From NCBI GenBank assembly GCA_002255585.1, contig NCBJ01000003.1, positions 21,571-85,570 of the forward strand: a stretch of DNA of 64,000 nt. Direction: 5' to 3'. A program made the translations under genes and the position numbers. The DNA is from Parcubacteria group bacterium 21-54-25 (GTDB taxonomy: Bacteria; Patescibacteriota; Minisyncoccia; Phycocordibacterales; Phycocordibacteraceae). The notes below the pieces were generated by a model that was not told the origin of the DNA, made no database searches, and was given only the letters and a program-made list of their open reading frames with translations. Shown one piece after another: positions 8,221 through 33,404 of this stretch; position 1 is the first letter of the stretch, and each line of letters opens with the position of its first letter.

Positions 8221-8315
8221 GGTGTATTGTTTAATGAATAGGTTATTAAGCTAAGATGATTAAGGGCAAGGCCCGTACGGAAAAACGAAATACTATAGGT
8301 CGTGGTCTTGTGTAC

Positions 8316-14118: not shown

Positions 14119-14913
14119 ATGGAAAAACGGCCCGACGTTTCGCATGAGCGCAAGAAGGACTCGCGTGAGTCTGTGGCGGAAGGAGGGGTGCTTCGCATGG
14201 TAAGTGAATCTGTGCAGGACCTGATTATCGATGTGGAGAGAGGTCGCTCTGTTTCTCTGGAAACGCTGCAGCTTGTGCAGGCGCAGCTCGAGTACGCGCG
14301 CGAACAAGTCGCAAAACGAGAACAAGCTCTCGAAGAGGCCGAGCGCACTGCACACGAGCACCGCGAAGAAGCCACAAAAGATTCGTTGACCCATCTTTTC
14401 AACCGTCGCGGTTTCATGGAAGCCCTCAGTATGAAAATAGAACGCACGAAGGAATCGCCTACGGATCTGCTCTATGCTTTTTTTATCGATCTCGATAAGT
14501 TCAAATTTGTAAACGACACGTATGGGCACGAGATGGGTGATCGCTATTTAACAATAGTTACCGCACACTTACACAAAGCCCTGCGTCCGGACGATACTCT
14601 CGCGCGTTTCGGCGGTGACGAGTTCACTGCGCTATGTTTTGTGCGTTATAAAGGCGAACAGGCAGAAGAAAGTCACGATGTGGGAGCTTCTCACATAGCC
14701 CTCCGCATTCAATATGCCCTCGACGCTGCGCGTCAAGAATTGAACGAAGAAATTAAAAGAATATTTCCCGATGCTCCACTAGCACACGATGTCGGGAGCG
14801 TCGGATATGCTTTTTATGACCCCACCGAATCTGTCGACGCCGCAGCATTTATCAGGCAAGCTGATAGACGTATGTATGAACAAAAACAAAAAGACAGTGC
14901 TGACAAGCGCTGA
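14119..14913 (+). CDS. GGDEF-domain diguanylate cyclase with an N-terminal coiled-coil
   Basis: [27 protein letters not shown], and RFGGDEF motifs. Confidence 0.8.
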
Positions 14914-16507
14914 GGGATGGTGAGAGAGTATGGTATACCGATAGGGCACGTACGTGCATGGAGAGGTGGCTGAGCGGTCGAAGGCACCGCCTTGGAAAGG
15001 CGGCGTACGGGAAACTGTACCAAGGGTTCGAATCCCTTCCTCTCCGCAGAGTCGGACGGTCAGCACTTTTCGAGAAGCATAGGAAGGGCTTCTTGGCCTC
15101 AATGCTGAGGATCCTGCCCTTTAGAGTGGGGTTCGAACCGACCGTGCTTATGATTCGCCTCTTCAGCGCGTCATCGCCCTCGGTGTACCATTTCGCGGCC
15201 CTACTGCTAAACGAGATCAGAGCCTTGGCGGGTTCGAACCATTTGCCGTCGGAGTTCGATAGCGCTTCCTGAAGACGGGCTTGTTCTTGCTGGAGCGCGG
15301 CGCGTTGTGCCGTAAATTCCTCGTCCCCGATCAAATCTCGAATCCTCAGCGTCGTCAAATTTACGAGTGCTCTCCCCGCTTCATCAGCTGCATGCTGATG
15401 TGACGCCTTTTGCTGCGCAGACACCTCTTGCTCGGCTCTGCGTGCCTTCGCCACTTGCTCGATTCCCCAGATGTGTAGGGGATCCGGTATGCGTAGCGTG
15501 GCGAGAAACTCGCGAAAGGCTTGGTCGAGCTGGGCGGCCGACAAGGAGCGCTGCCGGCAGCGGTAATCGAGTCGACGCCTACTGCAGTGGTAGTACGTAT
15601 AATGCCGGCCGTGGCGGTTGACTTTGTGTTCTGCAGTGACCATGAAGCCGCATTCACCGCAGCGTATAAGGCCGGTAAAGGGAAAGGAGTGGCGGATCGA
15701 TTGCGGTTTCCCCGGCTTGGCGAGAAGTGCCCGCACGCGATCGTGCTCGTCGAGCGTAATCATTCGGGCGTGAGCGCCAGGGTAGATTTGTCCGCCCCAG
15801 ACGAGCACGCCCGCGTAGAACGAGTTGTGCAGGATTCGATGGATACCGCCAATGGTGAGATATTTCCCACCAATACGCTTATGCTGCCGGGTTCGCAGTC
15901 CCCACGCACGGGAATGCTCCATGAGGTCACGGAGTGAATAGGTCCCGGTGAGCGCTAGGTCGAAGAGCTTCCTCACCAAAGCGAATCGGTCAGGATCTTT
16001 GACGATTGTGCGTGACGCGGGGTCATTGAGATAGCCGATCGGCGCGCCGTTGGGGCGCCATCCACGGGCTACCTTTGCGCGATTTCCGCGCTTTACATTT
16101 TCGCTCAGGTTGTCCACGTAGTACTTCGAGTACCCGAAGATGATCGAGAGCATGAACTTCCCCTGGGAGTTGTTTTCGAAGCTGAACGTGGAGAACTTGA
16201 GGTCTTTAAGCGAGCGGCGGTCGAGGAGGTAGATGATCTTCCCGCCATCCACCGAATTGCGTGCCAGGCGATCTGGGTGCCACGTGATGATCCCGTCGGC
16301 TTCCCCGCGCTCAATCCGCTCGAGCATCACGTTGAATATCGGCCGCCCCGGGGCCTTCGCGCTATACGACTCCCGTAGGACTTCAACGACCTCCACTTCC
16401 GGGCGACCCTCAAACGCCCGTTTCAACTCCGCCTCTTGCGAGTCAATGGAAAGTACTTGGCGGTCTTCCGCTTCGCTGGATTTTCGGCAATACACAAAAT
16501 ATTTCAT
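14852..16507 (-). CDS. Large serine recombinase (resolvase/invertase-type catalytic domain plus recombinase, zinc-ribbon and coiled-coil domains). The true 3' end is uncertain because the ORF reads across tRNA-Ser on the opposite strand.
   Basis: N-terminal [19 protein letters not shown]...[13 protein letters not shown] catalytic-Ser domain. Cys cluster (CGECGF...YYHC). C-terminal tail contains GRDSNPW, which is the translation of the tRNA T-arm. Confidence 0.8.
14960..15046 (+). tRNA. tRNA-Ser (anticodon GGA), type II with a long variable arm. No CCA is encoded.
   Basis: Acceptor GGAGAGG/CCTCTCC, D arm GCTGAGCGGTCGAAGGC, anticodon stem CCGCC/GGCGG with loop TTGGAAA, variable stem GTAC/GTAC, T arm AAGGG-TTCGAAT-CCCTT. 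Confidence 0.8.
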
Positions 16508-16936
16508 AGGGTTGTGAGTAACGACGATTAAACAGTACCACGCTTCTGGCGACCGCCCGAGCCACGGGGTCGGGAGGGCGCGGCGACATGTACCCAGGCC
16601 AATCAAGGGAGGCGATCACCCCCCCGGGGGGGCGAGTGAGCGTGCAGAGCCTTTCCAGGGCGCATTTGTTGACGCAATTTGTAGCGGAGCCCGCACGGCA
16701 GTAGCGGGGCGGACGGTATAGCGCCGAAATCCAGATCCGTGCGATAGAGCGTACGGACCGTAACCCAAAGGAGCTAGGGAGGGACACGAGCCGCCCGGGT
16801 GCAATTCGCCCGTATCGGTTTGCCCGACGAGAGCGTATCCCCCGGCGGCCGGAAAACGCCGCGGGGCGGGAATACGGATGCCCTCGGCAGTGTACGGCGC
16901 CTTTCTCACGTTCGCTTCTCCAGGTACCGTGGCGGC

Positions 16937-18629: not shown

Positions 18630-19004
18630 ATGTATCGACGAACGCACAACTACATTCGCGCATACCGCAAGCGCGCGGGCTTAAGCCAAGACGAGCTGGC
18701 GCTTTTGCTCGGATGCCGTAGCGGCACCAAGGTGTCTCGCTACGAACGGCACGCCCGTACGCCAACACTTGAAACCGCACTTGCGTGCCAGGCGATATTC
18801 GGCGTTCCGGTGCATGAGCTCTTTCCGGGCATGTATAGGGAGGTCGAACAAGTAACACACGCACGGGCACAGACGCTTGCGCGACAGCTTCGCTCCACGC
18901 CCGGCACGCCGCTGCCGGAGCGTAAGGCGCAGCTACTCGACATGATGGGTGCGCCGCGCGACGTCATCGCCCACCCAAGGAACTATGAAGCATACACGAG
19001 ATGA
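18630..19004 (+). CDS. XRE-family helix-turn-helix transcriptional regulator
   Basis: RAYRKRAGLSQDELALLLGCRSGTKVSRYERHARTP matches the Cro/C1 HTH pattern. The start is moved to the ATG at 18630. Confidence 0.6.
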   Translation: MYRRTHNYIRAYRKRAGLSQDELALLLGCRSGTKVSRYERHARTPTLETALACQAIFGVPVHELFPGMYREVEQVTHARAQTLARQLRSTPGTPLPERKAQLLDMMGAPRDVIAHPRNYEAYTR

Positions 19005-19506
19005 TGCCCTCGTCCTTGGCATCCACCCCGCTTCACGAGGCATCGGGTATACGGTCTTTGAGGGACCGCTCCGCCTCGTCGACTGGGGCGTCAAGGAGAC
19101 GCGGGAAAACAAAAACCGCGCGGGTATACAGAAAATCGGGGAACTCCTCGCGCTCTACCATCCTTCGGTACTTGTCATAGAAGCGTATCGGGGCGAGGGC
19201 TCGCGGCGCGCGAAGCGCATCCAGGCGCTTCTGGATAGCGTTACGGCATTGGCGAGAGCACGCAGGGTGCCGCTCCGGCGCTATTCCCGCGGCCACGTGC
19301 GCGCGTTCTTTTCGAACTACGACGCGACAACCAAGTACCAGATTGCGACGGCGATCGCGGCGTGGCTCCCCGAGCTCGAACCGCGCCTGCCGCCCGTCCG
19401 TAAGCCATGGATGAGCGAAGACTACCGCATGGCGATCTTCGACGCGGCGTCTTTGTCGCTCACGCACTTCCACCACAGCCGTGGCGAGGAGCGGGGCGCG
19501 GCGTAG
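18985..19506 (+). CDS. RuvC/YqgF-like (RNase H fold) resolvase-like protein. The first catalytic Asp is replaced (LGIHPASR instead of LGIDPGSR).
   Basis: N-terminus LVLGIHPASRGIGYTVFEG is colinear with the RuvC ILGIDPGSRVTGYGV motif. VIEAY (Glu) and FDAASLSLTHF (Asp) occur at the expected positions. Confidence 0.45.
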   Translation: MKHTRDDALVLGIHPASRGIGYTVFEGPLRLVDWGVKETRENKNRAGIQKIGELLALYHPSVLVIEAYRGEGSRRAKRIQALLDSVTALARARRVPLRRYSRGHVRAFFSNYDATTKYQIATAIAAWLPELEPRLPPVRKPWMSEDYRMAIFDAASLSLTHFHHSRGEERGAA

Positions 19507-19624
19507 AGGGCACCCGATTGTTCTTTGTCGGGCGGGCACGCGCGCGTGCCCGCCCGAGCCAACGTCTCCCTGCTACTGAGGAGCACCGAATCCCCGGTGT
19601 TCCTGGCGTGGCAAGGAGATACCC

Positions 19625-20536
19625 ATGGATACCGACCGTTCTTTCAAGAAGTCCGACCTCTATGCCCGGGTGACCGACCACATCATCCAGGCGATCGAAG
19701 CGGGAGCCACGGACTATGTCATGCCCTGGCATGAGCAGTCCGGGGCGGGCCTCCCCCGAAACGCCTCGACCGGAAACCTCTACCACGGGGTCAACACCGT
19801 ATCGCTCTGGACAAGTGCGTCGCGCCACGGATACGGCGTGCCGTACTGGGCGACGCTCCGACAGTGGGGTGCGCTCGGGGCCCGCGTCCTGCGCGGCGAG
19901 AAAGCCTCGCTCGTGGTCTTCTACAAGCGGGAGGAGGCGCCGGCCGACACAGAAACGAGCGAGAGCGTGGGGAAGAGGCGGGGCGTTCTCCGGGCCTCCT
20001 TCGTCTTCAATGCCCTCCAGGTTGACGGTTGGTCGCCGCCGGTACCCGAGAAGACCGATCGCACCGAGCGGCTCCAGGCGGCAGACGACCTCATCGAGGC
20101 GCTCGGGGCCGAGATCCTCTACGGGAGCACCCGCGCCTGCTACAGCCCGACCCTCGACCGCATCTTTATGCCCGGGCGTCCCCAGTTCATTGATGGAAGC
20201 ACGAGCACCGCGACCGAAGGATTCTATTCGGTCTTGCTCCATGAGCACATTCATTGGTCGGGGTACCGCACGCGGCTCAATCGAGACCTCACGGGGCGCT
20301 TCGGCGATAGCGCCTACGCCATGGAGGAGCTCGTCGCAGAACTGGGCGCGGCGTTCCTCTGCGCCGAGCTTGGCATCGAAGATCACCCGCGGCACGACCA
20401 CGCCGCGTACGTGGCAAGCTGGCTGGAGGTCCTTCGCCGGCAGAAGTCGGCAATCTTCACGGCGGCCAGTACCGCAACGGCGGCTTGCCGCTACCTCTCG
20501 GAGGTGGCAAGCCGGGTGGCCCAATCGTCCCTGTGA
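19625..20536 (+). CDS. ardC: ArdC-like antirestriction protein (N-terminal ssDNA-binding DUF1738 domain plus C-terminal zinc metalloprotease)
   Basis: ArdC_N-like N-terminus (DLYARVTDHIIQAIEAG...MPW). C-terminal LLHEHIHWSGY HExxH motif. Confidence 0.75.
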   Translation: MDTDRSFKKSDLYARVTDHIIQAIEAGATDYVMPWHEQSGAGLPRNASTGNLYHGVNTVSLWTSASRHGYGVPYWATLRQWGALGARVLRGEKASLVVFYKREEAPADTETSESVGKRRGVLRASFVFNALQVDGWSPPVPEKTDRTERLQAADDLIEALGAEILYGSTRACYSPTLDRIFMPGRPQFIDGSTSTATEGFYSVLLHEHIHWSGYRTRLNRDLTGRFGDSAYAMEELVAELGAAFLCAELGIEDHPRHDHAAYVASWLEVLRRQKSAIFTAASTATAACRYLSEVASRVAQSSL

Positions 20537-20949
20537 CCCTCCTCACCGCTGTCCTTTCCGTAGCCCGGCCGCGTGGCCGGGCTTTTTCTATCCATTCGCT
20601 TGAAGCGCCGCCGCAGCGGCAGGGTGCCGGCGTGGCAACTTTCCCCGTCTTTTTGGCGGCCTTCGTATCCGTATGCTACGGGCACGCCGCAGCCGTAGGG
20701 TGAGCGGCGTACAGATCCCACACGTTCCCACGCTCGTCCTCGTTTGGACGGGTAGCCCCCGGGAAGCCGGGGGGAAGTCGCCTGCCGTGTTGTACCACGG
20801 GGGAAAGCGTATCCATCGCATGGGCGCCACCGTTTCAACCTTCACACGGTTCCCCCCCCCTCCAGAGTGCATTGACCCCCGCTCGGGGGTCGCCCGAAGC
20901 CCGGTTCGGCGAAGCGGGCTTCCAAACGGCAACCGAGCGGAGGTGTGCA

Positions 20950-21453
20950 ATGAGCGATAAACAAGATGTACTGAGGGTCGTCGAGATGAACGGGCCGTAT
21001 GTAGCCGTCCGCGACCTTTCCCCCGACGACGTGATCGAAGCCGCCAAGAAGATCCTCAGGGCGCGTTTCCAGCGCGGGAAGAAACTTGATTGTTCCGCCG
21101 ACGCCAAGGATTATGTGATCCTCACCCTCGGCGACCGGGATCACGAGGCGTTTGCCTGCCTGTTTCTTGACACGCGCCATCGGGTGATTCGCTGCGACCT
21201 TATGGCCACCGGCTCGCTTGCGGAGGCGCGGGTGTACCCGCGGGAGGTCGTGAAGCGGGCACTACTCTACAACGCAGCCGCGGTGATTTTCGCCCACAAC
21301 CATCCCTCGGGCGTCGCCGAGCCGAGCAAGGGCGACAAGGCGCTCACGGACCGGCTCGCAAGCGCTTTGCAGCTCATCGACGTACAGGTACTCGACCACC
21401 TTGTCGTGGGCGGTGACGAGACCGTGAGCTTTGCCGATCGCGGGATGTTATGA
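20950..21453 (+). CDS. radC: RadC-like JAB/MPN domain protein
   Basis: HNHPSGVAEPSKGDKALT JAMM motif with an upstream E and S. The start is moved to the ATG at 20950. Confidence 0.85.
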   Translation: MSDKQDVLRVVEMNGPYVAVRDLSPDDVIEAAKKILRARFQRGKKLDCSADAKDYVILTLGDRDHEAFACLFLDTRHRVIRCDLMATGSLAEARVYPREVVKRALLYNAAAVIFAHNHPSGVAEPSKGDKALTDRLASALQLIDVQVLDHLVVGGDETVSFADRGML

Positions 21454-21930: not shown

Positions 21931-22066
21931 TGAGCGCGTGTCGCCTACCGGATGTACAGGTAGCCAAACTAATCAGTATAGGCTGGTCATAAAGATTCGT
22001 GACACCCAGGACTGATCGCTACGCGTTCTTTTTCATGCATACTCTCCAACCATCCTCGGGGTCCAA

Positions 22067-22090
22067 CCGACCCTTCCGGTCGGGTTTTTT
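22067..22090 (+). terminator. Rho-independent terminator (CCGACC-cttcc-GGTCGG-T6). A convergent minus-strand hairpin plus T-run at ~22107-22140 probably terminates the Dcd-like gene.
   Basis: Hairpins with U-runs seen on both strands between convergent genes. Confidence 0.5.
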
Positions 22091-22207
22091 GTGCAGTAAA
22101 TACTATGCGCACAAAAACCGGCCACCTAAAACTAGGTAACCGGTAAGCAACCAGGAGTCCTTGGCCACGAAGCGCTCTCAATTCGGCCTTCGTATCGTAC
22201 AACTTGC

Positions 22208-23104
22208 TCACAACCAGTGCCGGAGTCCTAACAGCACCGCGCTAACCACTACCGTAACGAGAGCACCAATGACGGCGGCAAAAATCGCAATCTTAACAGT
22301 TCGGCGGTGATCTTTCTGTTGCTCCAACTGACCGAATCTGGATTCGATTTTGACGAAGTCTCGATGAAGGTCTTGGTCGCCGCTGACTCTAAGACTTTTT
22401 TCGTTCTCGAGACCGTCTGTTAGTTTCTTCACCTCTTCCTTCAGGGCCCGGATACCTTGCAACACATTTCCAAGGTCTTCCCTGAATTCCTTCTTCCAGT
22501 CGTCTTGCTCTCGGACCTCGTTCTTAAGAGAGGTAACTTCTTGTTGCGTAGCCCGGATGGCGTCTCGGAGCCCCTCTAGCCTGATCGGCTGATAGTTCTG
22601 CATGAGACGCACGACGTCGTCCGGGAAGTCCGAGATTGATTCCGGCTGAGGAAACGTATCGATCTCCCCCTCCTCAAGGACATAGAAGACGGCCGCGATG
22701 AGTTTTTTGCGCGGCCGTAATGGCCATCGTGTCGTTGAGAAGTTGTAAAGGCCGACGAGCAGATTCCCCCGGTAGAGCGGATCGATGAAAAATCCCCCGA
22801 GAACAAGGATCCCTTCGTGGCTGAGTTTCCGCTTGGGGCTCAGCATTGCAGCCATGGTGTTTGGCAGATTAAGGACTTCTTCCGTAAGGACAAACGCGAC
22901 TTCGCCTGGATCAATGAAGAGCGCGCTGCGCTGCGTCTCGGTTAGTTTCATCACATCAATCGGTCCACCTCCCGCTTTGAGGAGCCGATTGCCCATCCTA
23001 AGGTCGTACTTCGCTCCTTCTACGCACGTCTCCTCGCCGCCTCGAATGAAAGTTTGGTCCCGGACCGCCGCAAGAAGACGTTGTCCCGTGACTATTGTTG
23101 GCAT
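22208..23104 (-). CDS. dCTP deaminase/dUTPase-fold (Dcd-like) domain fused to a ~70-aa coiled-coil and a C-terminal transmembrane anchor
   Basis: GAKYDLRMGN...IDPGEVAFVLTEEVLNLP...SPKRKLSHEGILVLGGFFIDPLYRGNLLVGLYNFS is colinear with Dcd motifs. Then heptad-rich KNEVREQDDWKKEFREDLGNVLQGIRALKEEVKKL and a terminal hydrophobic helix. The start is moved to the ATG at 23104. Confidence 0.6.
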   Translation of the reverse strand: MPTIVTGQRLLAAVRDQTFIRGGEETCVEGAKYDLRMGNRLLKAGGGPIDVMKLTETQRSALFIDPGEVAFVLTEEVLNLPNTMAAMLSPKRKLSHEGILVLGGFFIDPLYRGNLLVGLYNFSTTRWPLRPRKKLIAAVFYVLEEGEIDTFPQPESISDFPDDVVRLMQNYQPIRLEGLRDAIRATQQEVTSLKNEVREQDDWKKEFREDLGNVLQGIRALKEEVKKLTDGLENEKSLRVSGDQDLHRDFVKIESRFGQLEQQKDHRRTVKIAIFAAVIGALVTVVVSAVLLGLRHWL

Positions 23105-23340
23105 TGTAATGGCGCCTCCCGTGTCTTGGACGTGCTGCGGAGTACCGTCGACCCGTCCATCGGTTTGTTTGCGTGGGGTCATGGCTTTTTCCTCCTTGTT
23201 GAACTGACCGGCAGAACACCACGAGAACCGTGCCGTGCTGCCGGCAGTTCGCAAGAAGAACCACCCCGCGATCTTTCCGCGTCAAAGAGCTACCCAAGAA
23301 CCAGTATATCAGGTAAAAAATTTCAGGAACGCAACCGGAC

Positions 23341-23883
23341 ATGAAGGATGCTGCGGCCAATTCAGTCCTCGTGCTTGCCGTGAGTCCCGTGGCCCGTGGG
23401 TTTGCGTATGCCGCTTTCGAGGGTCCGCAGACGCTTCTTGACTGGGGACGAAAGGAGGCGCGCGTCAACCGCTACGCGTACGCGCGCCGGGAGCTTGCGG
23501 TTCTAGTCGGCTGGTACCGGCCGGAGCTCGTGGTGCTTGAGGGGGCTCGGCGCCACGAGGTCGAAGCGTTCGTCGATCAGTTTGAGCGGCATGCGCGCGC
23601 GGGCTATTCGCACCGAGCGGTTTGGCCAGCAGCGGGTTGCGGAGGTGTTCTCGGAGTTTGGCGCCACCCGGAAGTTCCAGCGCGACCGACTGCTCGGGCA
23701 ATGGTTCCCGGAGCTTGCGGGCGTGGTCAGAATGCGCCCGCCAACCTCGACGACAGAGCGCTGCGCCGCGAATGCATTCGACACCATCGCTCTCGCGCTC
23801 GTCCACTTCTACCTCGCCGCCTGATCGGGCAGGCCCGCTCGGGGACCGAACGAAGTCCAGTTCGAAGGAACCGGGCTTCGTGA
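23341..23883 (+). CDS. RuvC/YqgF-like resolvase-like protein, paralog of 18985..19506. The first catalytic Asp is replaced (LVLAVSPVARG).
   Basis: AFEGPQTLLDWGRKEARVNRYAYARRELAVLVGWYRPELVVLE parallels VFEGPLRLVDWGVKETRENKNRAGIQKIGELLALYHPSVLVIE in copy A. Confidence 0.4.
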   Translation: MKDAAANSVLVLAVSPVARGFAYAAFEGPQTLLDWGRKEARVNRYAYARRELAVLVGWYRPELVVLEGARRHEVEAFVDQFERHARAGYSHRAVWPAAGCGGVLGVWRHPEVPARPTARAMVPGACGRGQNAPANLDDRALRRECIRHHRSRARPLLPRRLIGQARSGTERSPVRRNRAS

Positions 23884-23909
23884 CGGCAACGGAGCAGGAG
23901 ATAGGCACG

Positions 23910-24413
23910 ATGAGCGAGAAACGGGAAGTGTTCCGTCGTGTGGAGACCGATGGCCCCTGCACGGCCATACGCGAGCTCACGCCCGACGAGGTGATCGGGG
24001 AAGCGAAGCGGATCATCAAGGCGCGCTTCCGGCGCGGGCGCAGGATCGCCCAGCCCAGGGACGCCGAGGATTACCTCATCCTCACCCTTGGCGACCGCGA
24101 GCAGGAGGTCTTCTCCTGCCTCTATCTCGACCAGCGCCACCGGGTAATCAGCTGCGACCTCATGGCCTTCGGCACCCTGGCCGAGGCCCGAGTCTACCCG
24201 CGGGAGATCGTCAAACGAGCCATCCTTTACAACGCGAGTTCGATCATCTTCGCCCACAACCATCCCTCGGGCGTCGCCGAGCCCAGTAAGGACGACGAGG
24301 CGCTCACGCGCCGACTTTCCGACGCCCTTCGCCTCATCGACGTCCGCGTACTCGACCACTTCGTCGTAGGGGGAGGCGAGACGGTGACCTTCGCCGAGCG
24401 CGGGTTGCTGTGA
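23910..24413 (+). CDS. radC: RadC-like JAB/MPN domain protein (second copy, ~70% identical to 20950..21453)
   Basis: HNHPSGVAEPSKDDEALT motif and the same length (167 aa). Confidence 0.85.
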   Translation: MSEKREVFRRVETDGPCTAIRELTPDEVIGEAKRIIKARFRRGRRIAQPRDAEDYLILTLGDREQEVFSCLYLDQRHRVISCDLMAFGTLAEARVYPREIVKRAILYNASSIIFAHNHPSGVAEPSKDDEALTRRLSDALRLIDVRVLDHFVVGGGETVTFAERGLL

Positions 24414-24530: not shown

Positions 24531-24800
24531 ATGACACCCAGCGAAATTGTAAATGTTCGGCGTGCCTTGGGGCTTTCCCAGGTTGAGTTTGCGCGCTTAT
24601 TGGACGTTCATTCTATGACCGTGAGTAAATGGGAGCGCGGCCTCGTTCCACCGACCCCATATCAGGTTGCACTTATGGACCAGTTTCGTCGCGCGACCCA
24701 AGCGCAACAGGCCAAGGTCGACGAGCAGCTAAAGCATCTGCTGGTCAGTGCCGGCGTCATAGCGGCCCTGTTTTTCCTCCTCAAATCCGCTAACGAGTGA
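24531..24800 (+). CDS. XRE-family HTH protein with a C-terminal transmembrane helix
   Basis: RRALGLSQVEFARLLDVHSMTVSKWERG HTH. C-terminal LLVSAGVIAALFFLL helix. Confidence 0.6.
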   Translation: MTPSEIVNVRRALGLSQVEFARLLDVHSMTVSKWERGLVPPTPYQVALMDQFRRATQAQQAKVDEQLKHLLVSAGVIAALFFLLKSANE

Positions 24801-24806
24801 GGCGGT

Positions 24807-25187
24807 ATGTCTCCATTTAACCCCTTCGCCATTCTTGTACTCTCCCGTCCAAAGCTCACCGGTCTCGGTGAACATTGGGGGGTCCGACTTCCCGATGGTC
24901 GCGTAGCGCATTGTATGCCTGTGATTGGGGTCTGCATTAGCTCATTTGAAGACTTTTCGGCAGGCAAGGACGTCGTGGTGCGACGTGAGGTGTCTCCGGC
25001 GCTACTTAGCGAAGTGTATCGTCGACTGAACGTGGCCCTTTTTTATCCGCGGCCATACGACTTGCTCTCGTGGAACTGCGAGAGCTTCGCGAACTGGCTA
25101 ACTTGTGGGGAGCCCGAAAGCGCGCAAGTCGCCGGCATCGGCATCCTTTTCTTCCTAACTTTAGTAGTGGCTGGGCTTTCCAGGTGA
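24807..25187 (+). CDS. LRAT/NlpC-P60-superfamily (H-box ... NCE-x-F catalytic Cys) domain protein with a C-terminal TM helix
   Basis: HWGV (His) and LSWNCESFANWL (catalytic Cys motif NCExF), as in LRAT/PPPDE-type domains. Confidence 0.45.
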   Translation: MSPFNPFAILVLSRPKLTGLGEHWGVRLPDGRVAHCMPVIGVCISSFEDFSAGKDVVVRREVSPALLSEVYRRLNVALFYPRPYDLLSWNCESFANWLTCGEPESAQVAGIGILFFLTLVVAGLSR

Positions 25188-25444: not shown

Positions 25445-27220
25445 ATGCGCGCGCAGAATATGAGTATGAGCTTAACTCGCCAACACGTGCTCGATTTGGA
25501 AGACTACAAGGTGCGACCGGCGTTATCCCCGATCGTGCAAAATGCCGTTGATGTCTTGGCCAGCGCGCATGGGACAGAGCGTGGGGCTATCTACACCCGC
25601 CAGGAAGTCGTGGAGTTTATTCTCGATCTCGTTGGGTACACAACGGATCATCCACTTCATGAGGCGCGATTGCTGGAACCCTCGGTGGGCGAGGGCGACT
25701 TTCTCGTTCCAGCGGTTAAGCGTCTGCTGGCTTCCTACGCAACCAGCCGTCGTCCGCACTCGGCGCTTGTGGATGACCTCGCTCCCGCGCTCACGGCGGT
25801 CGAGCTGCATTCCGACAGTTTGACGCTAGTCAAGGAGAAGGTTCTTGGCGTGCTCGGCGAATTTGACGTTACGGGGCCTTCGGCGCGCCAGTTGCTCGAT
25901 GCTTGGCTGAGTAACGGCGACTTCCTCCTTACAAACCTTCCCCGTCCATTCACGCATGTTGTGGGTAATCCGCCGTATGTCCGGCAGGAGCTCGTCCCCG
26001 ACGCGCTCCTGCAAGAGTACCGGCGGCGATACGAAAGCATCTATGATCGGGCGGATCTGTATGTGCCATTCATCGAGCGCTCGCTAACGTCCCTTGAGCC
26101 GGGTGGCGTTGTGGGCTTTATATGTACAGATCGATGGATGAAGAATCGGTACGGAAAGCGGCTTCGGCAGATCATTTCTGAGGGCTACCACCTCCGCAGC
26201 TATGTCGACATGGTTGGGACGGACGCATTCCATTCCGATGTCACGACCTATCCGGCAATTACCGTGATCGCGCGCGAGAAGGCGGGCCCCACGCGGCTTG
26301 CAGGGCAGCCTAAGATCGATCGGGACTCGTTGCGTCAGCTCGCCGAGCTGATGAATGCAAGGCAAATCGCACCCGACGGCCCTGTCGCTGAACTAGCGGG
26401 GGTCGTCGACGGCGCAGATCCCTGGCTGCTGCAATCTGCCGATCAGCTCCAGGTGGTCCGGCGCCTAGAGCAGGAGTTTCCGATGCTCGAAGAAACGGGT
26501 TGCCAGGTAGGTATTGGCGTTGCAACTGGTGCCGATCGGGTGTTCGTAGCCCCGTTCGAGGAGCTGGACGTTGAGCCATCCCGCAAGCTGCCACTGGTGA
26601 TGACGAAGGACATTGCTTCGGGAGTGGTGAAGTGGCGGGGGTTCGGCGTCGTGAATCCCTTTGAGGCGGACGGCCAGCTGGTGGATCTTGCGGCTTACCC
26701 GCGGCTACGGCGGTATCTTGAGCACCACCGGGACACGGTCGCGCGTCGTAATTGCGCGACGAGACATCCGAATGGCTGGTACCGGACGATTGACCGGATT
26801 TACCCTGAGCTAGCCACGACGCCAAAACTCCTAATTCCAGATATCAAGGGTGAAGCGAACGTAGTATACGAGAGCGGGAAGCTCTATCCTCACCACAACC
26901 TGTATCACGTGACCTCGAAAGCGTGGGATCTTCGGGCGCTTCAGGCAGTCCTGCGCTCCTCGGTTGCGAAGCTCTTCGTGTCGACGTACTCAACCCGGAT
27001 GCGCGGAGGCTATTTGCGGTTTCAGGCGCAGTACCTTCGCCGTATTCGGATCCCTCAGTGGGATGAGGTACCAGACGACCTCCGGAGGAGTCTCACTGAG
27101 GCCGCAAAGTCGGGTGATACCGAAGCATGCAACCGCGCGGTATTTGTGCTCTATAGGCTGACACAAGAAGAACAAGCCGCAATTGGTGGCAGCGGAGCCC
27201 AAGATCGATATGACAATTGA
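25445..27220 (+). CDS. N6-adenine DNA methyltransferase (gamma class, Eco57I/TaqI-like family), the modification subunit of a Type II R-M system
   Basis: Motif [11 protein letters not shown]-terminal AdoMet-binding region. 591 aa with a C-terminal target-recognition region. Confidence 0.8.
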
Positions 27221-27947
27221 CCTCGCGGATTTCGATACCAAGGCACGGGAGGCGATTAAGGCGTTCTGGGGAAACCGCGAGGCGGCGCGCCAGCGGCAGA
27301 TCGCACAAGGAAAAGCGGACCAAGGAGAGCGGGCGGGTGTCACGGCGGGCAAGAACATGGACGGTTTCGTGTTGCTCGCGCAGGACATCGTACGCCAAAA
27401 CGGCTTACCGCACGCCGACATTTTCCTTAAGCGACGTGTCCTCACCCTCCCAGGCTATTTTCGTCCGACTAAGCAATGGGACATGCTCGTGATGAACCAA
27501 GGCCGCCTTGTGGCTGCCATTGAATTCAAGAGCCAGGTGGGGCCCTCTTTCGGGAATAACTTTAACAATAGGACAGAGGAGGCGATTGGCACCGCTCTCG
27601 ACCTACGAACCGCGTTCCGAGAAGGTGCCTTTGGGGATAGCCAGGCTCCATTCGTCGGTTGGTTGATGTTGGTCGAAGACTGTGAAGGTTCTCGATCTCC
27701 GGTGCGGGATCGCTCCCCCCACTTCCCGGTATTCGCAGATTTCCAAGGCTCCTCGTACGCGGATCGCTATAACATCCTGTGCAGGAAGCTTGTCCAGGAA
27801 CAGCTGTATACGGCAGCGTCGGTGATTATCTCCAGCCGATCCGCGGTTGACACCGGAGCCTTCGCAGAGCTGCTACCGTTGACTGGCTTGCGGACGTTCG
27901 TAGCAAGCTTGGGAGGACACGTTGCGGCCGAGGCGGCTCGGGGCTGA
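27210..27947 (+). CDS. Type II restriction endonuclease (PD-(D/E)xK). Its start overlaps the MTase stop by 11 nt.
   Basis: [21 protein letters not shown] carries D...ExK. The M-then-R layout and sizes (~590/245 aa) resemble PaeR7I/XhoI-type systems. The family is not confirmed. Confidence 0.5.
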
Positions 27948-28279
27948 GCCGAAATCAATCGTCCCGGGACCGTTTTTCCCGAGGCCATTTCACTCAAGAA
28001 TGCGAAAATGGTGGCGGCGTTGGGTCCGATGGCGGGCTACGGCGGCGGAGGATGCGGCCTGGGGGCGCGCGCGTCTACCAAAGATATACAAGCTTGCTCT
28101 GAGTGGCTGGGTACGGCATATGGTGGCGAGAAAGCGGAGCCAGGTCTGCGGAAACGTTACGAGACAGTATTGCAGTGGCCAGTTTAGGCCGAGCATAGAT
28201 TTGGGACATAGTCAGTCCCGGCGGACTCTTGCCCAAAGTGACGTGAGTGGGCGGCGCTCATGAGACATAGGTAAATTTT

Positions 28280-28570
28280 ATGGTCAAAGTTCTCAGTCCT
28301 CTACAAATCGTGGGCCTGGTTTGGTTCTGCGCATCCATTATATTGGCGCTTAGCACCACAGTTTATTTCAGATTCTGGTTGCGTAGGCGCGACGTAAAGG
28401 TAATGCTGGGTTTGGCGGCGGTTCCCGGCTATCTAGAGATGCTCTATATGAAATGGTGTCGAGAACACTCGCAGAGCGGGACGGTAGTTCTTTCGCTCCG
28501 TTTCGTGCTGCTTGTTAATGTATTGTTGTCAGCACTGATCGTGGTTCCGTTTGTAATCATGAAAAATTGA
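28280..28570 (+). CDS. Small membrane protein (3 predicted TM helices) upstream of the SIR2-like gene
   Basis: 96 aa, hydrophobic, low-GC segment. Confidence 0.35.
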   Translation: MVKVLSPLQIVGLVWFCASIILALSTTVYFRFWLRRRDVKVMLGLAAVPGYLEMLYMKWCREHSQSGTVVLSLRFVLLVNVLLSALIVVPFVIMKN

Positions 28571-28716
28571 TGACTCGTGAATTATTTTTCACGGCTACCC
28601 AAAGACCCCTACCCCGTCGGCGTGGTTTGCGGCATTCAGCGGGATCCCATAGAAAAGAACGAGGCAAGAATATCACAATGCTGCATTATTTATGGCGTCG
28701 TGTTTAGAAACGCACT

Positions 28717-30486
28717 ATGGAAGACCCGCTCATGCAAATGCCCGTTGCCTCTACTGTCGAGTCGCAGAAAAACCAAGTCGCTTTCCTATTTGGCGCGGGG
28801 GCGTCAATGGAAGCGGGCGTTCCTGATACCGTGTCGCTAATCAACGAATTCCGTGTGAAAGATGACGATGCTAATGTCAGCGAATTTCTGGAACTGCTTG
28901 GCAGATGGGCTAAGCAGCAGGATCGTCCTCTTGATATAGAACTCGTCCTCGAAACACTCCAGCGTCTGGCCGACTGGAAAGAAGACCCGTTGTCAGGGTT
29001 TGCGGACAAACCAATCAAGATCGACGGGCTGGATGCCCAAACGCTTCTCAACCGACTACGGGATTTCATAAAAAATAAGGTCTTGGTCGATGCCGAGCAT
29101 ATTACCTATCTGGAACCGCTCCGCGGCTTCATCGACGCATACCGACCCCTCCATCTCTACTCCGCGAACTACGATACCGCTATCGAGGTGCTCTGCGCCG
29201 AGCACAAACTGAAATACCGGGACGGATTTGATGAGGCATGGAATCCCGCTCTCTTAGATGAGCCGAACGTTGATCTCCGTCTATTCAAGCTTCATGGCTC
29301 GGTGACGTGGTATCGAAGCAACCGTGGGCGATTTTTGAAAATCCCGGTCCTGCTCCACGACAGCTCCGTCGAATTGGTGACTAAGGAACGCGCTGAAGCC
29401 CTAATGCTTTACCCCGCACAGAAATTCGAGTATGTGGAGCCACTGTTTGAACTGTTGCTGGCCGCCAAGCGGCGGTTAGCGGAGAGTCAGGTGTTAATCG
29501 TGGTCGGCTACTCATTTCGGGACGAGCATATTCGTCAGTTGCTATGGGATATAGCCCGCGAATCGCCCAGGTTCATCGTCATTCTGATCGGACCCAAGGC
29601 ACGAGATATTTATCAAGAGCGACTCAAATGGTACGAACGAGACAGGATCCCCTCGGCGCTCCAGGGGCGGGTGCTCTGCCTCCCTTTTTTGTTCGGGAGG
29701 GTCTTTCCCGCGCTGCAACCGGAATTGTTACCACGGGTGCTCCAGTTTCGCGAGGACTTGGAGCAACAGTTAGCACAGGAGCGACGAGGTCATCCTGGGA
29801 TTTGGGAGGGTGCTGTGCTGAATGCGGCTCGCGGCGGAGATTACGAAGTAGTCCGCAGAATCCTAGAAAAGCCGCAGGTGTTAGCGCAACAGCTCAACTA
29901 TGCGCAACAATTTGATTGCCTGGTTCTAAGCCTTTTCCATGCGGCTGCAAACAGCGATGTTGTCGCAGGAAGATATTTCTGGGACAAGCTGCATGATACG
30001 TTGCGAGAGATCATTGACCGTATCACTCTCAACGTACAATTCGGCGGATCTTCCAGCTGGCTCGTAGTGTCCGTTAATAAAAACAACCGAAGCGAGAATT
30101 TTCAGAATCTTATCCGCGGGCTTGCGGCTCCGCATCAGGAGATAGATCGGCGGCGTCGGTGGATGGGTGATGCCGAGTCCTCATCAGAATACCTGCGGGC
30201 GGTGAATCGGGTCTTAACGGATCTACAGAGTGCGATGCAGATCTGGTCCAACGTAGGGCAAGTCGCGCCGAGCGACTATGCGGCAGCACGCCAACAGGAA
30301 ATTCCAGGGGATCTAAAGGGGGAGATTCTGGATAAACTTGATCGGTTGCGGGAAAAAAATTCCGAGTCCTGGTCGGACGTCGACGAGCGGCAACTAGAGC
30401 AGGGGCTCAGGGGAACCGAACAAGCCGTCATTAACAAGGTGTTTCAGGAGTTAGACCAGTTGTGGGGCGAGAATAGGGAATTGTAA
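28717..30486 (+). CDS. SIR2_2-family (defence-type sirtuin-like NADase fold) protein with a ~300-aa helical C-terminal domain
   Basis: VAFLFGAGASMEAGVP (Rossmann Gly-rich), LYSANYDTAIE (catalytic Asn), FKLHGSVTW (catalytic His), VVGYSFRDEHI, as in ThsA/DSR SIR2 domains. Confidence 0.75.
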   Translation: MEDPLMQMPVASTVESQKNQVAFLFGAGASMEAGVPDTVSLINEFRVKDDDANVSEFLELLGRWAKQQDRPLDIELVLETLQRLADWKEDPLSGFADKPIKIDGLDAQTLLNRLRDFIKNKVLVDAEHITYLEPLRGFIDAYRPLHLYSANYDTAIEVLCAEHKLKYRDGFDEAWNPALLDEPNVDLRLFKLHGSVTWYRSNRGRFLKIPVLLHDSSVELVTKERAEALMLYPAQKFEYVEPLFELLLAAKRRLAESQVLIVVGYSFRDEHIRQLLWDIARESPRFIVILIGPKARDIYQERLKWYERDRIPSALQGRVLCLPFLFGRVFPALQPELLPRVLQFREDLEQQLAQERRGHPGIWEGAVLNAARGGDYEVVRRILEKPQVLAQQLNYAQQFDCLVLSLFHAAANSDVVAGRYFWDKLHDTLREIIDRITLNVQFGGSSSWLVVSVNKNNRSENFQNLIRGLAAPHQEIDRRRRWMGDAESSSEYLRAVNRVLTDLQSAMQIWSNVGQVAPSDYAAARQQEIPGDLKGEILDKLDRLREKNSESWSDVDERQLEQGLRGTEQAVINKVFQELDQLWGENREL

Positions 30487-30859
30487 CGCTTCCGTCACCT
30501 GTAGGAACGCGGAGCTCGAAGCGATGCCGAGGAAGGCCAGTTTGGGCTGGAAGGCATCGTTCAGGTACGGCGAACCATGGTCATGAGGTAAGGACGGACC
30601 GTCGGTTCTTTCCTCGGCAAAGTCGTCAACGCACAAGTTCCTGCCCGGGGAGGACCGATCACAGGATCTCGATTGGGCAGTCGCCGTGTCAGTGTTGATG
30701 CGAGTGGGGATGTTGCCGGGATCGGACGGGATTGCATCACAATCCCATCACAGTCACCGAGTGATGGATCCGGTAACATCCTGAAAAATAATGTGATGGA
30801 ATGTGATGAAAACCGCCCCAACCAGATCGACTAAAAACTACTTAACTGCTTGTTTAAAT

Positions 30860-30891
30860 TGGCGCCCCGGTCAGGATTCGAACCTGAGACC
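30860..30891 (-). other. Partial tRNA 3' end (T arm plus acceptor 3' strand plus CCA). It is a putative att site remnant next to the tyrosine integrase.
   Basis: The minus strand reads GGTCTCAGG-TTCGAAT-CCTGACC-GGGGCG-CCA. No matching 5' half is present upstream. Confidence 0.5.
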
Positions 30892-30986
30892 TTCCCCTTA
30901 GGAGTGGAAAGGTCGCTGTGCAACCTATTGAACTCGTGATGGATAAATGGCACCATCACAAAACCATCACACGAGAACCGGCACTC

Positions 30987-31997
30987 ATGGCCACCTTCCG
31001 GAAAATGGCATCCGGCCACTGGCAAGCGATCGTGCGGCGCAAGGGCTACCCGCACGCCGCGCGTACCTTCCGCACCAAGGCGCTCGCAGAGCGCTGGGCA
31101 CGCGGTATCGAGAACAGCATCGACGAGGGCGAGTATGCGGCCGCCTCCCGCATATCCGTTGGCGAACTTCTCGCTCGCTACGAGGAGCGCTTCACGCCAG
31201 CCAAGCGATCCCGCGTGAAGGAGAGGTCCCGAATCAAGACACTGACCCGGCACCTCGGCGAACTGCCGCTCTCCGTCCTCACGCCAGAGGCCATCGTCTC
31301 CTACATTGAGGACCGGTTGGAAGAGGTGGCTTCCGATACAGCGCGCAAGGAGCTGCACACGCTCTCCGTCATCGTGGACACCGGCATGGCGCTTTGGGAG
31401 ATCGGCCTGCGCGTGAATCCGGTGGTGGTCGCCAAGGCCATCCTGCACGCCACGAAACTCCTCAAGCCCGGGGTGAAGCGCGAGCGCCGGCCGACCCCCA
31501 AGGAGCTTGCGGCACTGGCGAAATCGAGCCACTGGCCGCTGTGGGAGTATGCCATCGAGACGGCCATGCGCCGCGGCGAGATCGCAGTGCAGCGGCGCGA
31601 ACACCGATCCGGAAACGTGCTGCATATTCCGCAGACGAAGACCGACCAGCCCCGTACCATTCCTCTGTCGCGGCGGGCCATGGAGATCCTCGACGGCCTG
31701 CTGGAGCGCGGCGACGGCGCGGTTTGGGGCATTACGGCCGACGCCATGACCCGCGCGTTCGCGCGCGAGTGCCGGGCGGCCAACATCGCCGACCTGCGCC
31801 TGCACGACCTGCGGCACGAAGGAACGTCACGGCTGTTCGAGAAGGGATGGACCATCCCGCAGGTGGCGGCGGTCACCGGCCATTCGGACTGGTCCTCCCT
31901 GAAGCGCTACACCAAGCTGAACCCGTCGCGGCTGGCGGCGAAGCTGGGTCGACGTGGCAAACGCCGCCAGGCCCGGGCCGACCTCTCGGATGGTTAA
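30987..31997 (+). CDS. int: Tyrosine recombinase/phage-type integrase
   Basis: C-terminal LHDLRHEGTSRLFEKGWTIPQVAAVTGHSDWSSLKRYTKL (R...HxxR...Y catalytic box). N-terminal SAM-like arm. Adjacent to the tRNA fragment. Confidence 0.85.
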   Translation: MATFRKMASGHWQAIVRRKGYPHAARTFRTKALAERWARGIENSIDEGEYAAASRISVGELLARYEERFTPAKRSRVKERSRIKTLTRHLGELPLSVLTPEAIVSYIEDRLEEVASDTARKELHTLSVIVDTGMALWEIGLRVNPVVVAKAILHATKLLKPGVKRERRPTPKELAALAKSSHWPLWEYAIETAMRRGEIAVQRREHRSGNVLHIPQTKTDQPRTIPLSRRAMEILDGLLERGDGAVWGITADAMTRAFARECRAANIADLRLHDLRHEGTSRLFEKGWTIPQVAAVTGHSDWSSLKRYTKLNPSRLAAKLGRRGKRRQARADLSDG

Positions 31998-32226
31998 CCT
32001 ACACCCCGATGAACAGGGAGGCCGACTGCGGCGCGAGCGTGGGTTTACTCATGGAACAGTGCGGCTAACGGGCCGCAGAGTGAGTGTGGCACTGTGTAGA
32101 ATGCAGGTATGCACCAAGACGGCCTGTGCCTTGCCCATGCATCTGAGCCCCGTTATTGGGGCACGTGAAGACAGCTAACGGCCGGGACCATCCTGGCGGT
32201 TAACGCAAACAAAGGACGGAGAACGC

Positions 32227-33399
32227 ATGAACAACACCGAGGATTCGAATTGGTTCGATGACTACGCCGAGGGTGTAGATGACCTCCAAGTCGAGGAGTA
32301 CGACATAACGGCTTCTCCAAACGATTTCAATGTCATGACCCTTCATAGCTTCGTTGAGTCTGGAGCAGTACGCATCCCTGGCTTTCAGCGCAACTTCGTT
32401 TGGGACCTCGGGCGAGCGTCAAAACTCATAGAATCCCTGATCCTGGGTTTGCCGGTGCCGCAGCTCTTCCTCTACGAGCAGGCACGCAACAGGTTCCTGG
32501 TTATCGACGGACAACAACGGCTCATGTCCATCTACTACTTCATCAAGAAACGCTTCCCTCGGAAGGAGAAGCGGGTTGAGCTTCGCGCGATCTTCGATCG
32601 TGAGGGCCGGATTCCTGACGAGATACTTCATGAAGATGAGTACTTCCAGACCTTCAACTTAAGGCTACCGGAGCGGCTGCCAAATCACGAGAACAAGTTC
32701 AAGGGCCTGAACTATGCAACACTCGGCGAATACAAGGCGCAGTTTGATCTTAGGCCAATCCGGAACATAGTGGTGAAGCAGAATGCTCCTTCAGGAGATG
32801 ATTCATCAATGTATGAGGTCTTCAACCGACTCAATTCTGGCGGCATCAACCTGCGGCCGCAGGAGATCCGCACCAGCATGTATCATTCTGCATTCTATGA
32901 AATGCTGTACCACATCAACGCGGAGCCGGGGTGGCGGAAGATACTGCAGTGGTCTGAACCGGACCTACATATGAAGGACATCGAGATCCTTCTGCGCGGT
33001 TTCGCTATGCTCATCGATGGCGAGCACTACGCGCCATCGATGGTGAAGTTCCTGAATCAGTTCTCAAAGAAATGCGAAACGCACGATGCACAGCAGAACA
33101 CCTATCTCCGTGATCTGTTCTTTTCGTTCCTCGGCGCGTGTCACGATCTTCCGGACGACGCGTTCGTGAACAAGAAGAACAAGCGGTTCAATATCGCTCT
33201 TTTCGAGGCTATCTTCTCGGCCTCATGCGAACGCGCATTCGGCGAACGACGCCCGGTCGCGGGTGAACTACAGCGTGAGGCCATCGAAGCGCTCGAGACA
33301 GATGAGGAGTTTCTCGAAGCGGCACTTGAAGGAACAACGCGAACGGTCAATGTACAGAAACGCCTCAGCCGAGCACGGGAAATCGTGGGCGCAATGTAG
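32227..33399 (+). CDS. DUF262 (ParB-like/GmrSD N-terminal-type) domain protein
   Basis: IPGFQRNFVWDLGRASKLIESLILGLPVPQLFLYE...FLVIDGQQRL (DGQQR motif). Confidence 0.8.
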   Translation: MNNTEDSNWFDDYAEGVDDLQVEEYDITASPNDFNVMTLHSFVESGAVRIPGFQRNFVWDLGRASKLIESLILGLPVPQLFLYEQARNRFLVIDGQQRLMSIYYFIKKRFPRKEKRVELRAIFDREGRIPDEILHEDEYFQTFNLRLPERLPNHENKFKGLNYATLGEYKAQFDLRPIRNIVVKQNAPSGDDSSMYEVFNRLNSGGINLRPQEIRTSMYHSAFYEMLYHINAEPGWRKILQWSEPDLHMKDIEILLRGFAMLIDGEHYAPSMVKFLNQFSKKCETHDAQQNTYLRDLFFSFLGACHDLPDDAFVNKKNKRFNIALFEAIFSASCERAFGERRPVAGELQREAIEALETDEEFLEAALEGTTRTVNVQKRLSRAREIVGAM

Positions 33400-33404
33400 G
33401 GAAA

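Follow-up and report, generated by a model that had tools for sequence, protein, structure and literature searches.

A membrane-anchored protein of the Dcd/dUTPase fold

The reverse strand of a 64,000-nucleotide stretch of DNA from Parcubacteria group bacterium 21-54-25 (NCBI assembly GCA_002255585.1, contig NCBJ01000003.1, positions 21,571 to 85,570; this whole stretch is referred to as the window) carries a real open reading frame (ORF), with its TGA stop at 22208–22210, whose product of 324 amino acids (aa) is the target of the present analysis. The protein has four parts, namely a head with the fold of deoxycytidine triphosphate (dCTP) deaminase (Dcd) and dUTPase (Dut), a conserved linker, a coiled coil, and a single C-terminal transmembrane helix (Table 1). 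A previous interpretation made from the DNA letters (the sequence-only reading) had described a Dcd-like fold with a coiled coil and a C-terminal hydrophobic helix, and all three were recovered. The Pfam family DCD (PF22769) matches residues 30–162 with 38.9 bits (cutoff 27). The transmembrane and coiled-coil calls were obtained from Kyte-Doolittle hydropathy over 19 residues, which reaches a maximum of 2.83, and from a periodicity test, in which the 3.5-residue power of Leu, Ile, Val, Met and Phe in the stalk is 2.34, whereas 2000 shuffles of the same composition averaged 0.2 and never attained the observed value. The AlphaFold2 structure, a single-chain (monomer) model computed with the family alignment as input, has a mean predicted local distance difference test score (pLDDT) of 84.8, with 93–98 in the barrel and one unbroken helix at residues 202–323.

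Within the head the invariant residues are D60, K117-R118, D134-P135-x-Y137 and G139, and Gly144 occupies the position of the catalytic Glu of Dcd. The linker contains an invariant Phe186-Pro187 pair within the family motif PE..I.DFPDELVRLI..YQP; it may correspond to the C-terminal arm of Dut and Dcd and play the same part. The stalk had been recognised as heptad-rich from the letters, at a length of about 70 aa, but extends over ~98 aa, is free of proline, and keeps a nearly constant heptad register; in an alignment of relatives (A1), W229, F233, L237, E261 and R265 are nearly invariant. The PADLOC models LeoC, LmuB and HerA match residues 200–316, and these matches were set aside as reflecting coiled-coil and transmembrane composition rather than homology of the head.

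Active-site residues of the head

The residues of the head were compared with those of the E. coli enzymes, using the family set assembled from all searches (332 proteins, 256 of them with at least 260 aa). In the HMMER alignment the catalytic Glu138 of E. coli Dcd, which is Ala in the E138A entry (PDB: 1xs4), falls on Gly144. Among the relatives, 313 of which have a residue in this column, the position is filled by Gly (292), Leu (9), Ala (6), Val (4) or Cys (2), and by Glu in none. The stretch Arg110-Ser111-Ser112...Arg115 of E. coli Dcd aligns to Lys117-Arg118-Lys119...His122, and Pro70-Arg71-Ser72 of E. coli Dut aligns to Pro116-Lys117-Arg118. The general base of Dut (Asp90) and its sugar-stacking residue (Tyr93) align to Asp134 and Tyr137. 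These positions are conserved in the family, with Lys117 in 309, Arg118 in 312, Asp134 in 308 and Tyr137 in 311 of the 332 relatives. The Gln of dUTPase motif 4 is Ala in the target (LIAAVF), and no motif-V arm of the RGxxGFGS type is visible, the post-barrel position being taken by the conserved DFPDELVRL linker.

The target reaches 51.6 bits with the NCBIfam Dcd model TIGR02274 (cut-off 92.8), and 25.5 and 24.7 bits with the dut models TIGR00576 and NF001862 (cut-offs 102.55 and 103, respectively), whereas the match to Pfam dUTPase (PF00692) is borderline at 23.6 bits (cutoff 22). PHROG 1663, annotated as dCTP deaminase, is matched with an E value of 3.4e-9, and many relatives are labelled 'deoxycytidine triphosphate deaminase' by JGI; no PADLOC model matches through the head at E ≤ 1. 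Because the Glu is replaced by Gly, the motif-2 serines and Arg115 are replaced as well, and the scores fall below the Dcd and Dut cut-offs, the target is not to be read as a dCTP deaminase, and the 'catalytic region' of the sequence-only reading did not hold up. Judged by these residues, the head cannot be expected to deaminate by the known mechanism. It is best described as a divergent clade of the Dcd/dUTPase fold in which the deoxyribose/base pocket is kept and the phosphate-binding side is remodelled, with a family-specific Lys-Arg-Lys...His motif that faces the phosphate.

A second Dcd-like gene, at 46233–46907 on the forward strand, matches PF22769 with 108.5 bits, keeps both the Ser-Ser pair and the catalytic Glu within TLE(L), and looks catalytically canonical. 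It has no sequence relationship to the target (BLASTP E value 0.26), as had been claimed. Its assignment to the same island is doubtful, since it lies 23 kb away, past a tyrosine integrase (30918–31997) and two coupling-protein-like genes, and it possibly belongs to an adjacent element. A 427-aa ORF (44950–46233, forward strand), whose stop overlaps the start of this second gene, encodes a metallopeptidase-like HELGH (HExxH) motif and has no match in Pfam, PADLOC, PHROG or PDB; the two genes may constitute a two-gene module.

Family, distribution and selection

Among 5.8 billion proteins searched, 100 relatives with 39–78% identity were retrieved, nearly all of them 270–350 aa long; in A1 they align throughout, from the barrel by way of the linker motif and the helical stalk to the hydrophobic helix at the end. 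Exactly one C-terminal transmembrane segment was found, at a strict threshold, in 238 of the 256 near-full-length relatives (~93%), and 13 more lie just below that threshold. On average 2.1 Lys and Arg residues precede the helix and 0.7 follow it, and the median tail beyond the helix has 7 aa; because basic residues precede the helix and the tail is short, the family is predicted to be tail-anchored with its N-terminus inside. The ratio of nonsynonymous to synonymous substitution rates (dN/dS), calculated against a homolog with 78% identity, is 0.19 overall, 0.11 in the barrel, 0.15 in the stalk and 0.38 in the transmembrane helix. With values below 0.4 in every module, all modules are under purifying selection, and this, together with the recurrence of the architecture in the 238 relatives, argues that the combination is not due to chance.

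The family is small. A HMMER scan of 1.84 billion cluster representatives gave 111 clusters at E ≤ 1e-30 and, at the looser threshold of E ≤ 1e-10, 439, and a pattern-based scan of one genome for each of 185,579 species, which provides a lower bound, found at least 6 loci, in Acidobacteriales, Pyrinomonadaceae, Micropepsaceae, Clostridiaceae and one unclassified metagenome-assembled genome. Other searches added the source labels Planctomycetes, Bacteroidota and Oscillospiraceae. This patchy spread across phyla points to horizontal transfer. Full-length relatives number 0 among 50,697 phage records and none in the plasmid collection, and three IMG/VR contigs carry a family member. In one further locus (L061, 7899–8893) the reading frame of the family member is broken into two ORFs that overlap, 7899–8231 and 8219–8893, owing either to a frameshift that has made it a pseudogene or to a fault in the assembly.

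One relative departs from the common architecture behind the head. P0171, a metagenomic protein of 512 aa found on two contigs of at most 3.4 kb, has entries in JGI, ENA and Logan. Its head belongs to the same clade, contains the KR motif and LIFGLYNFS, and scores 171.6 bits on the hidden Markov model of the family domain, and a defence-type SIR2_2 domain (70 bits) replaces the stalk and the transmembrane helix. The SIR2 part matches the PADLOC models for the SIR2 domains of LmuA, ThsA, PDC-S25 and Dsr1, and is ~60% identical to Oscillospiraceae SIR2 proteins that have a different accessory domain (PF19789). Proteins with the Dcd-stalk-transmembrane architecture occur in Oscillospiraceae too. 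Because one head is thus joined to two alternative modules of the killing type, a split into sensor and effector is proposed, and the fusion is suggestive of a sensor role for the head.

Genomic context

On the left, the region containing the target is bounded by a large serine recombinase (14852–16606, reverse strand) next to tRNA-Ser, with host-type GroEL, LemA, M48 peptidase and GGDEF genes further left. The tRNA-Ser(GGA) at 14960–15047 (forward strand) lies inside the 3' part of the listed recombinase ORF and is probably the integration site; in a search for att sites, no stretch of at least 14 nt from the tRNA-Ser region recurred anywhere else in the window. Rightwards, on the forward strand, follow an unknown 489-aa gene, a helix-turn-helix (HTH) gene, a weakly RuvC-like 173-aa gene, ArdC, RadC and a 101-aa gene, and then the target on the reverse strand. 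To its right are found a paralogous 180-aa gene, a second RadC, an HTH gene, an LRAT/NlpC-like gene, an Eco57I-type methylase and an XhoI-type endonuclease, and further right a SIR2_2 protein, the tyrosine integrase, an NsnA/GmrSD-like gene and a RiboL-PSP HEPN gene. In this recombinase-bounded island a restriction-modification pair lies ~2.3 kb from the target, and the SIR2, NsnA/GmrSD-like and HEPN genes are all no more than 11 kb away.

The sequence-only reading had placed the target between two RuvC-like/RadC modules. RadC was confirmed on both sides, with 144 and 141 bits, and the two genes are 68% identical to each other; the RuvC-like label derives from a sub-threshold Pfam match (E value 0.023) of ORF 18949–19506 and from its 37% identity over 87 aa to ORF 23341–23883. 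The duplicated module (18949–21453 and 23341–24413, forward strand) flanks the target and includes ArdC in its first copy; the target is the sole gene on the opposite strand, as if inserted between the two copies.

Outside the window, the homolog with 78% identity occupies the same place in a related element and adjoins an IS3 insertion. The settings of more distant members differ widely. One of them has a PD-(D/E)XK gene and a coupling-protein-like ATPase as direct neighbours, and an SMC-like ATPase and a PemK toxin close by. Others are found near AbiEii, near a CBASS pair together with DUF932 and a serine recombinase, within the nusA-rbfA region, amid genes of sugar metabolism, beside a transposase, in a ParA context resembling that of a plasmid, or with rnpA on one side and toxin-antitoxin pairs on the other. 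A transposase is adjacent in 5 of 16 loci. All-versus-all BLAST of the neighbours revealed no conserved partner gene in 16 loci, nor when 33 were compared; the recurrent neighbours among the 33 were DUF6471 (5), IS1595 transposases (4), serine recombinases (4) and coupling-protein-like ATPases (3), of which DUF6471 and IS1595 recur only within one subclade of 4–5 loci. In a Pfam census of 101 further neighbours housekeeping enzymes predominate. Because no partner is shared and the contexts differ widely, the gene is a self-contained mobile unit.

Defence genes are situated near the target in the window and near its relatives in loci L004, L005, L014 and L015, and many other loci are housekeeping in character; these are plain observations of proximity. 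The association with defence islands is real in some lineages, including that of this window, and is not a rule of the family. The neighbourhoods of homologs, which the sequence-only reading had proposed as a check, show mobile or defence genes at some loci and no neighbour common to the 33.

Two particular settings are relevant to the function discussed below. In one lineage represented by 21 contigs (L017–L019, 7300–8843), the family member follows lexA on the same strand at a distance of ~100 bp, which hints at SOS-linked expression. In a Mu-like phage (L024, 6864–15177; IMGVR_UViG_3300033145_001347), the member lies between a Bro-N/anti-repressor gene and an amidase endolysin, on the same strand and directly upstream of the latter, ahead of the terminase and portal genes, in a position typical of a moron or a holin-like gene. 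A further observation concerns the DUF6471 genes (Table 1), whose HTH-regulator-like products have 79–97 aa; they are convergent with and just after the family member, usually with IS1595 alongside, and may be part of a small mobile cassette.

Comparison with known proteins and systems

By both sequence and fold, the closest solved relatives are the long dUTPases of archaea (T. pacificus, PDB: 8y1w; P45, PDB: 9ln0 and 9ln3). The profile match between 9ln0 and the target family has 46.8 bits (E value 2e-11), and the predicted structure of the target aligns to 8y1w with a Foldseek template-modelling score of 0.85 and a root-mean-square deviation of 2.6 Å. Common to both are YD(L/F)R, (I/V)DP..(Y/W).G and the lack of the Dcd Glu. 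In contrast, the archaeal enzymes are soluble proteins of ~155 aa with Arg-Ser-Ser in motif 2 and Gln in motif 4, where the target has Lys-Arg-Lys and Ala, and the target further includes the conserved linker, the 98-aa coiled coil and the transmembrane helix. E. coli Dcd and Dut rank after the archaeal dUTPases as structural and sequence neighbours. With Dcd (E. coli, PDB: 1xs1 and 1xs4) and the bifunctional Dcd-Dut enzymes (M. tuberculosis, M. jannaschii) the target shares the β-barrel and PF22769, with a Foldseek probability of 1.0 to Dcd, and its motif-4 region is Dcd-like (LIAAVF versus LIGALSF in Dcd). Unlike Dcd, it has E138 changed to Gly, S111 to Arg and R115 to His, a TIGR02274 score below the cut-off, and a membrane anchor.

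Defensive dCTP deaminases have an extra N-terminal kinase-like domain and are not known to have a transmembrane helix. They work through the deamination of dCTP, whereas the target is without the deaminase residues and without a PADLOC match. These enzymes are members of the same superfamily, are anti-phage, and are often found near defence genes, according to the summary of Tal et al. 2022 in PMC13276650. The transmembrane effectors of CBASS, Pycsar and Thoeris and the SIR2 effectors (ThsA, LmuA, DSR) follow a like logic, in which a cytoplasmic nucleotide-binding module is coupled to a membrane-spanning or NADase killing module. Unlike those abortive-infection systems, the target has no signal-producing partner gene, one transmembrane helix per chain, and a long coiled-coil joint. 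The Dcd/Dut fold is not known to have been described as a sensor in such systems. A precedent for a dUTPase-fold protein as a nucleotide-dependent switch is offered by the trimeric dUTPases of phages that act as signalling proteins in the derepression of Stl of staphylococcal pathogenicity islands; these are soluble and catalytically active, contain an extra motif VI, and are related to the target in fold only.

Full-text literature searches turned up neither a Dcd/dUTPase-fold protein that carries both a coiled-coil stalk and a tail anchor nor a fusion of this head to SIR2, and the structure matches in PDB and BFVD include the soluble core only, none of them covering the stalk or the transmembrane helix. 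The statement that tail-anchoring of this fold is unusual is upheld. The target clade is uncharacterised and architecturally distinct, and the fold itself is well known. A predicted defence system containing a dUTPase (DefensePredictor, PMC13092281) was considered and found to be different, being multi-gene, with MazG-C and aGPT-Pplase; the name SKA1 is used there for yet another system.

Proposed function and alternatives

We tentatively propose that the protein is a standalone, mobile and tail-anchored effector of the inner membrane which senses nucleotides and acts in abortive infection or in an exclusion-type response. To our knowledge, all characterised enzymes of the Dcd/Dut fold form trimers, or hexamers of such trimers, whose C-terminal arms cross to neighbouring active sites. 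The N-terminal cytoplasmic head would trimerise as all known members of the fold do, from which it would follow that the three stalks form a bundle and the three transmembrane helices are brought together. The head would act chiefly as a nucleotide sensor, with or without slow hydrolysis, its ligand being a pyrimidine deoxynucleotide or a derivative made by a phage or another element. Binding of the ligand might order the linker, in the role of the arm, and the signal would be passed through the stalk to the transmembrane bundle, which would then perturb the membrane, leading to abortive infection or exclusion. Broader, and rather doubtful at present, is the idea that a new class of one-protein immune or exclusion sensors is involved, in which a remodelled dUTPase-fold trimer reads the pool of deoxynucleoside triphosphates (dNTPs) and directly gates a trimeric coiled-coil/transmembrane effector, and whose head could be swapped onto a SIR2 NADase; triggers of such a sensor might be, for example, a dUTP surge or modified pyrimidine dNTPs made by a phage.

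Several points weigh against the sensor-effector proposal. The function itself is a prediction, the trimerisation and the transmission of a signal are inferred from other members of the fold, the SIR2 fusion is known from a single cluster, and the head matches no PADLOC model. The link with defence islands is not general, many metagenomic loci having ordinary metabolic neighbours. With one transmembrane helix per chain the effector would be minimal, and the helix could simply be an anchor. The strictly conserved Asp134 and basic motif would fit a working hydrolase equally well. The selection for nucleotide-pool manipulation envisaged by the sequence-only reading is unproven; the role in defence or counter-defence that it suggested would suit the context in the window and sits less easily with the many copies among housekeeping genes.

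The working-hydrolase argument leads to the main alternative, which we consider unlikely, though deserving of attention, and in which the protein is an active, membrane-tethered pyrimidine dNTP pyrophosphatase of the dUTPase type, with the stalk and transmembrane helix serving for localisation only. Such an enzyme would clear the vicinity of the membrane of dUTP, dCTP or a modified dNTP; on a mobile element, the effect could be to protect or favour the DNA of the element as it enters or replicates, or to deplete a dNTP locally. True dUTPases (8y1w, 9ln3) are indeed the closest solved structures, the general-base Asp (D134) and the sugar-stacking Tyr (Y137) are invariant, the Pfam dUTPase score exceeds its cutoff, the basic K117-R118-K119 could bind a triphosphate, and ArdC, RadC and DUF932 adjoin the gene on integrative or conjugative elements. 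However, the change of Ser to Arg in motif 2 and of Gln to Ala in motif 4, the lack of a recognisable P-loop-like arm of motif V and the dut score of 25.5 (cut-off 102.55) argue otherwise, and localisation alone leaves both the nearly invariant stalk residues and the SIR2-fused sibling unexplained. True deamination is harder still to credit. A bona fide membrane-anchored dCTP deaminase or Dcd-Dut that depletes dCTP, in the manner of the defensive dCTP deaminases, would account for the Pfam DCD match, the JGI labels and the PHROG 1663 match, but is very improbable in view of the Gly at the Glu138 position (Glu in 0 of 313), the replacement of Ser111 by Arg and of Arg115 by His, and the low TIGR02274 score without a PADLOC match; the second Dcd-like gene, which keeps these residues, shows what a competent version looks like.

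The copies downstream of lexA and upstream of the endolysin, together with the tail-anchored single-helix topology, bring to mind a toxin or timer that acts at the membrane in the service of the mobile element itself, or as part of the SOS response, such as a holin-like regulator of prophage lysis, for which the place before the amidase endolysin is the usual one, or an SOS-induced inhibitor of division or of the membrane. The head would then gate activity according to replication or damage status, and the gene would not be an immune gene. We regard this as improbable, because these are two lineage-specific contexts among 33 loci, because ~290 aa and a large cytoplasmic domain are unlike known holins, and because most copies are outside prophages, as the counts in phage records and IMG/VR contigs indicate.

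If the head is a sensor, as we propose, this would be the first Dcd/dUTPase fold to provide the input of a cell-autonomous effector in bacteria, and a very compact single-gene model of ~300 aa for the way in which a change in the nucleotide pool is turned into a membrane response during infection or DNA transfer. If it is only a tethered pyrophosphatase, the protein would be a modest architectural curiosity. Hundreds of metagenomic labels of the type 'deoxycytidine triphosphate deaminase' or 'dUTPase' are misleading, since the deaminase residues are lost and the proteins are membrane proteins, and such relatives should not be counted as enzymes of dNTP metabolism.

Transcription unit and additional features of the window

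The NCBI entry with the identical translation, 'hypothetical protein B7X04_01410' [Parcubacteria group bacterium 21-54-25], which comes from a metagenome-assembled genome, starts at the ATG at 23182. An alternative ATG at 23104 (MPTIVTG...), at which the sequence-only reading had set the start, would give a protein of 298 aa and is where most homologs begin (A1). Because the gene has a terminator hairpin of its own beyond its stop (Table 1), it is most likely monocistronic; a separate terminator on the forward strand (22067–22083) belongs to the convergent 101-aa gene. A 74-aa ORF (21987–22211, reverse strand) that overlaps the stop of the target as GTGA was considered as a translationally coupled partner and rejected as probably spurious, because it crosses the two terminator hairpins, has no family match, and is not called in the NCBI and Logan annotations. 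Upstream of the gene, the inverted repeat in the divergent promoter region is a possible operator or 5' hairpin.

Table 1. Features of the target gene, its product and the DUF6471 genes of relatives. Positions are those of the window, except for the DUF6471 genes, which are numbered within the loci named.
Feature	Position	Strand	Basis
Complete coding sequence, 324 aa + TGA	22208..23182	-	Translation identical to NCBI record; dN/dS 0.19
Shine-Dalgarno sequence AAGGAGG	23191..23197	-	8 nt upstream of ATG 23182; read directly from sequence
Variable N-terminal extension, aa 1-26	23105..23182	-	Missing in most homologs (A1); pLDDT ~50; dN/dS 0.35 versus closest homolog
Dcd/dUTPase-fold β-barrel head, aa 27-175	22658..23104	-	Pfam DCD, AlphaFold2 model, Foldseek, residue alignments
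Conserved linker and short helix, aa 176-199, PESISDFPDDVVRLMQNYQP	22586..22657	-	Invariant columns in alignments A1 and A2; helix 188-196 in model
Coiled-coil stalk, aa 200-297, ~14 heptads	22292..22585	-	Periodicity, AlphaFold2 helix, weak coiled-coil family matches, A1; dN/dS 0.15
C-terminal transmembrane helix, aa 298-320, IAIFAAVIGALVTVVVSAVLLGL	22223..22291	-	Maximum of 19-residue Kyte-Doolittle hydropathy (2.83); basic HRRTVK precedes
Terminator-like hairpin, 12 pairs then T-run	22117..22144	-	64 nt past target stop
Imperfect 16-nt inverted repeat	23208..23244		Within 158-bp divergent promoter region
DUF6471 genes	L021 2486-2725; L022 8914-9207; L049 3852-4109; L050 1633-1890		

Between the target and the defence genes to its right, a small HTH gene (XRE/MqsA-like) and a 126-aa LRAT/NlpC-P60-like gene, separated by a gap of 6 nt (24531–25187, forward strand), resemble a toxin-antitoxin pair. 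The defence cluster itself extends over 25445–33974 and is made up of the restriction-modification pair, a 589-aa SIR2_2 protein, and an NsnA/GmrSD_N-like gene followed by the RiboL-PSP HEPN gene, with the tyrosine integrase in mid-cluster. The 589-aa protein matches the PADLOC Aga_SIR2/SIR2 models, and no Argonaute was seen nearby. To the right of the integrase, TrwB/TraG-type coupling-protein-like ATPases at 35156–37216 (forward strand) and 41419–42630 (reverse strand), with a 3'-5' exonuclease of the DNA-polymerase-A type (39715–40374) between them, suggest a second conjugative or integrative element. The guanine-plus-cytosine content of the contig, 51–65%, together with the GGDEF, LemA and GroEL genes and the large mobile elements, is odd for the Parcubacteria label. 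The same contig is present in GCA_027311325.1 and GCA_035427565.1, and the assignment to Parcubacteria may be a binning artefact.

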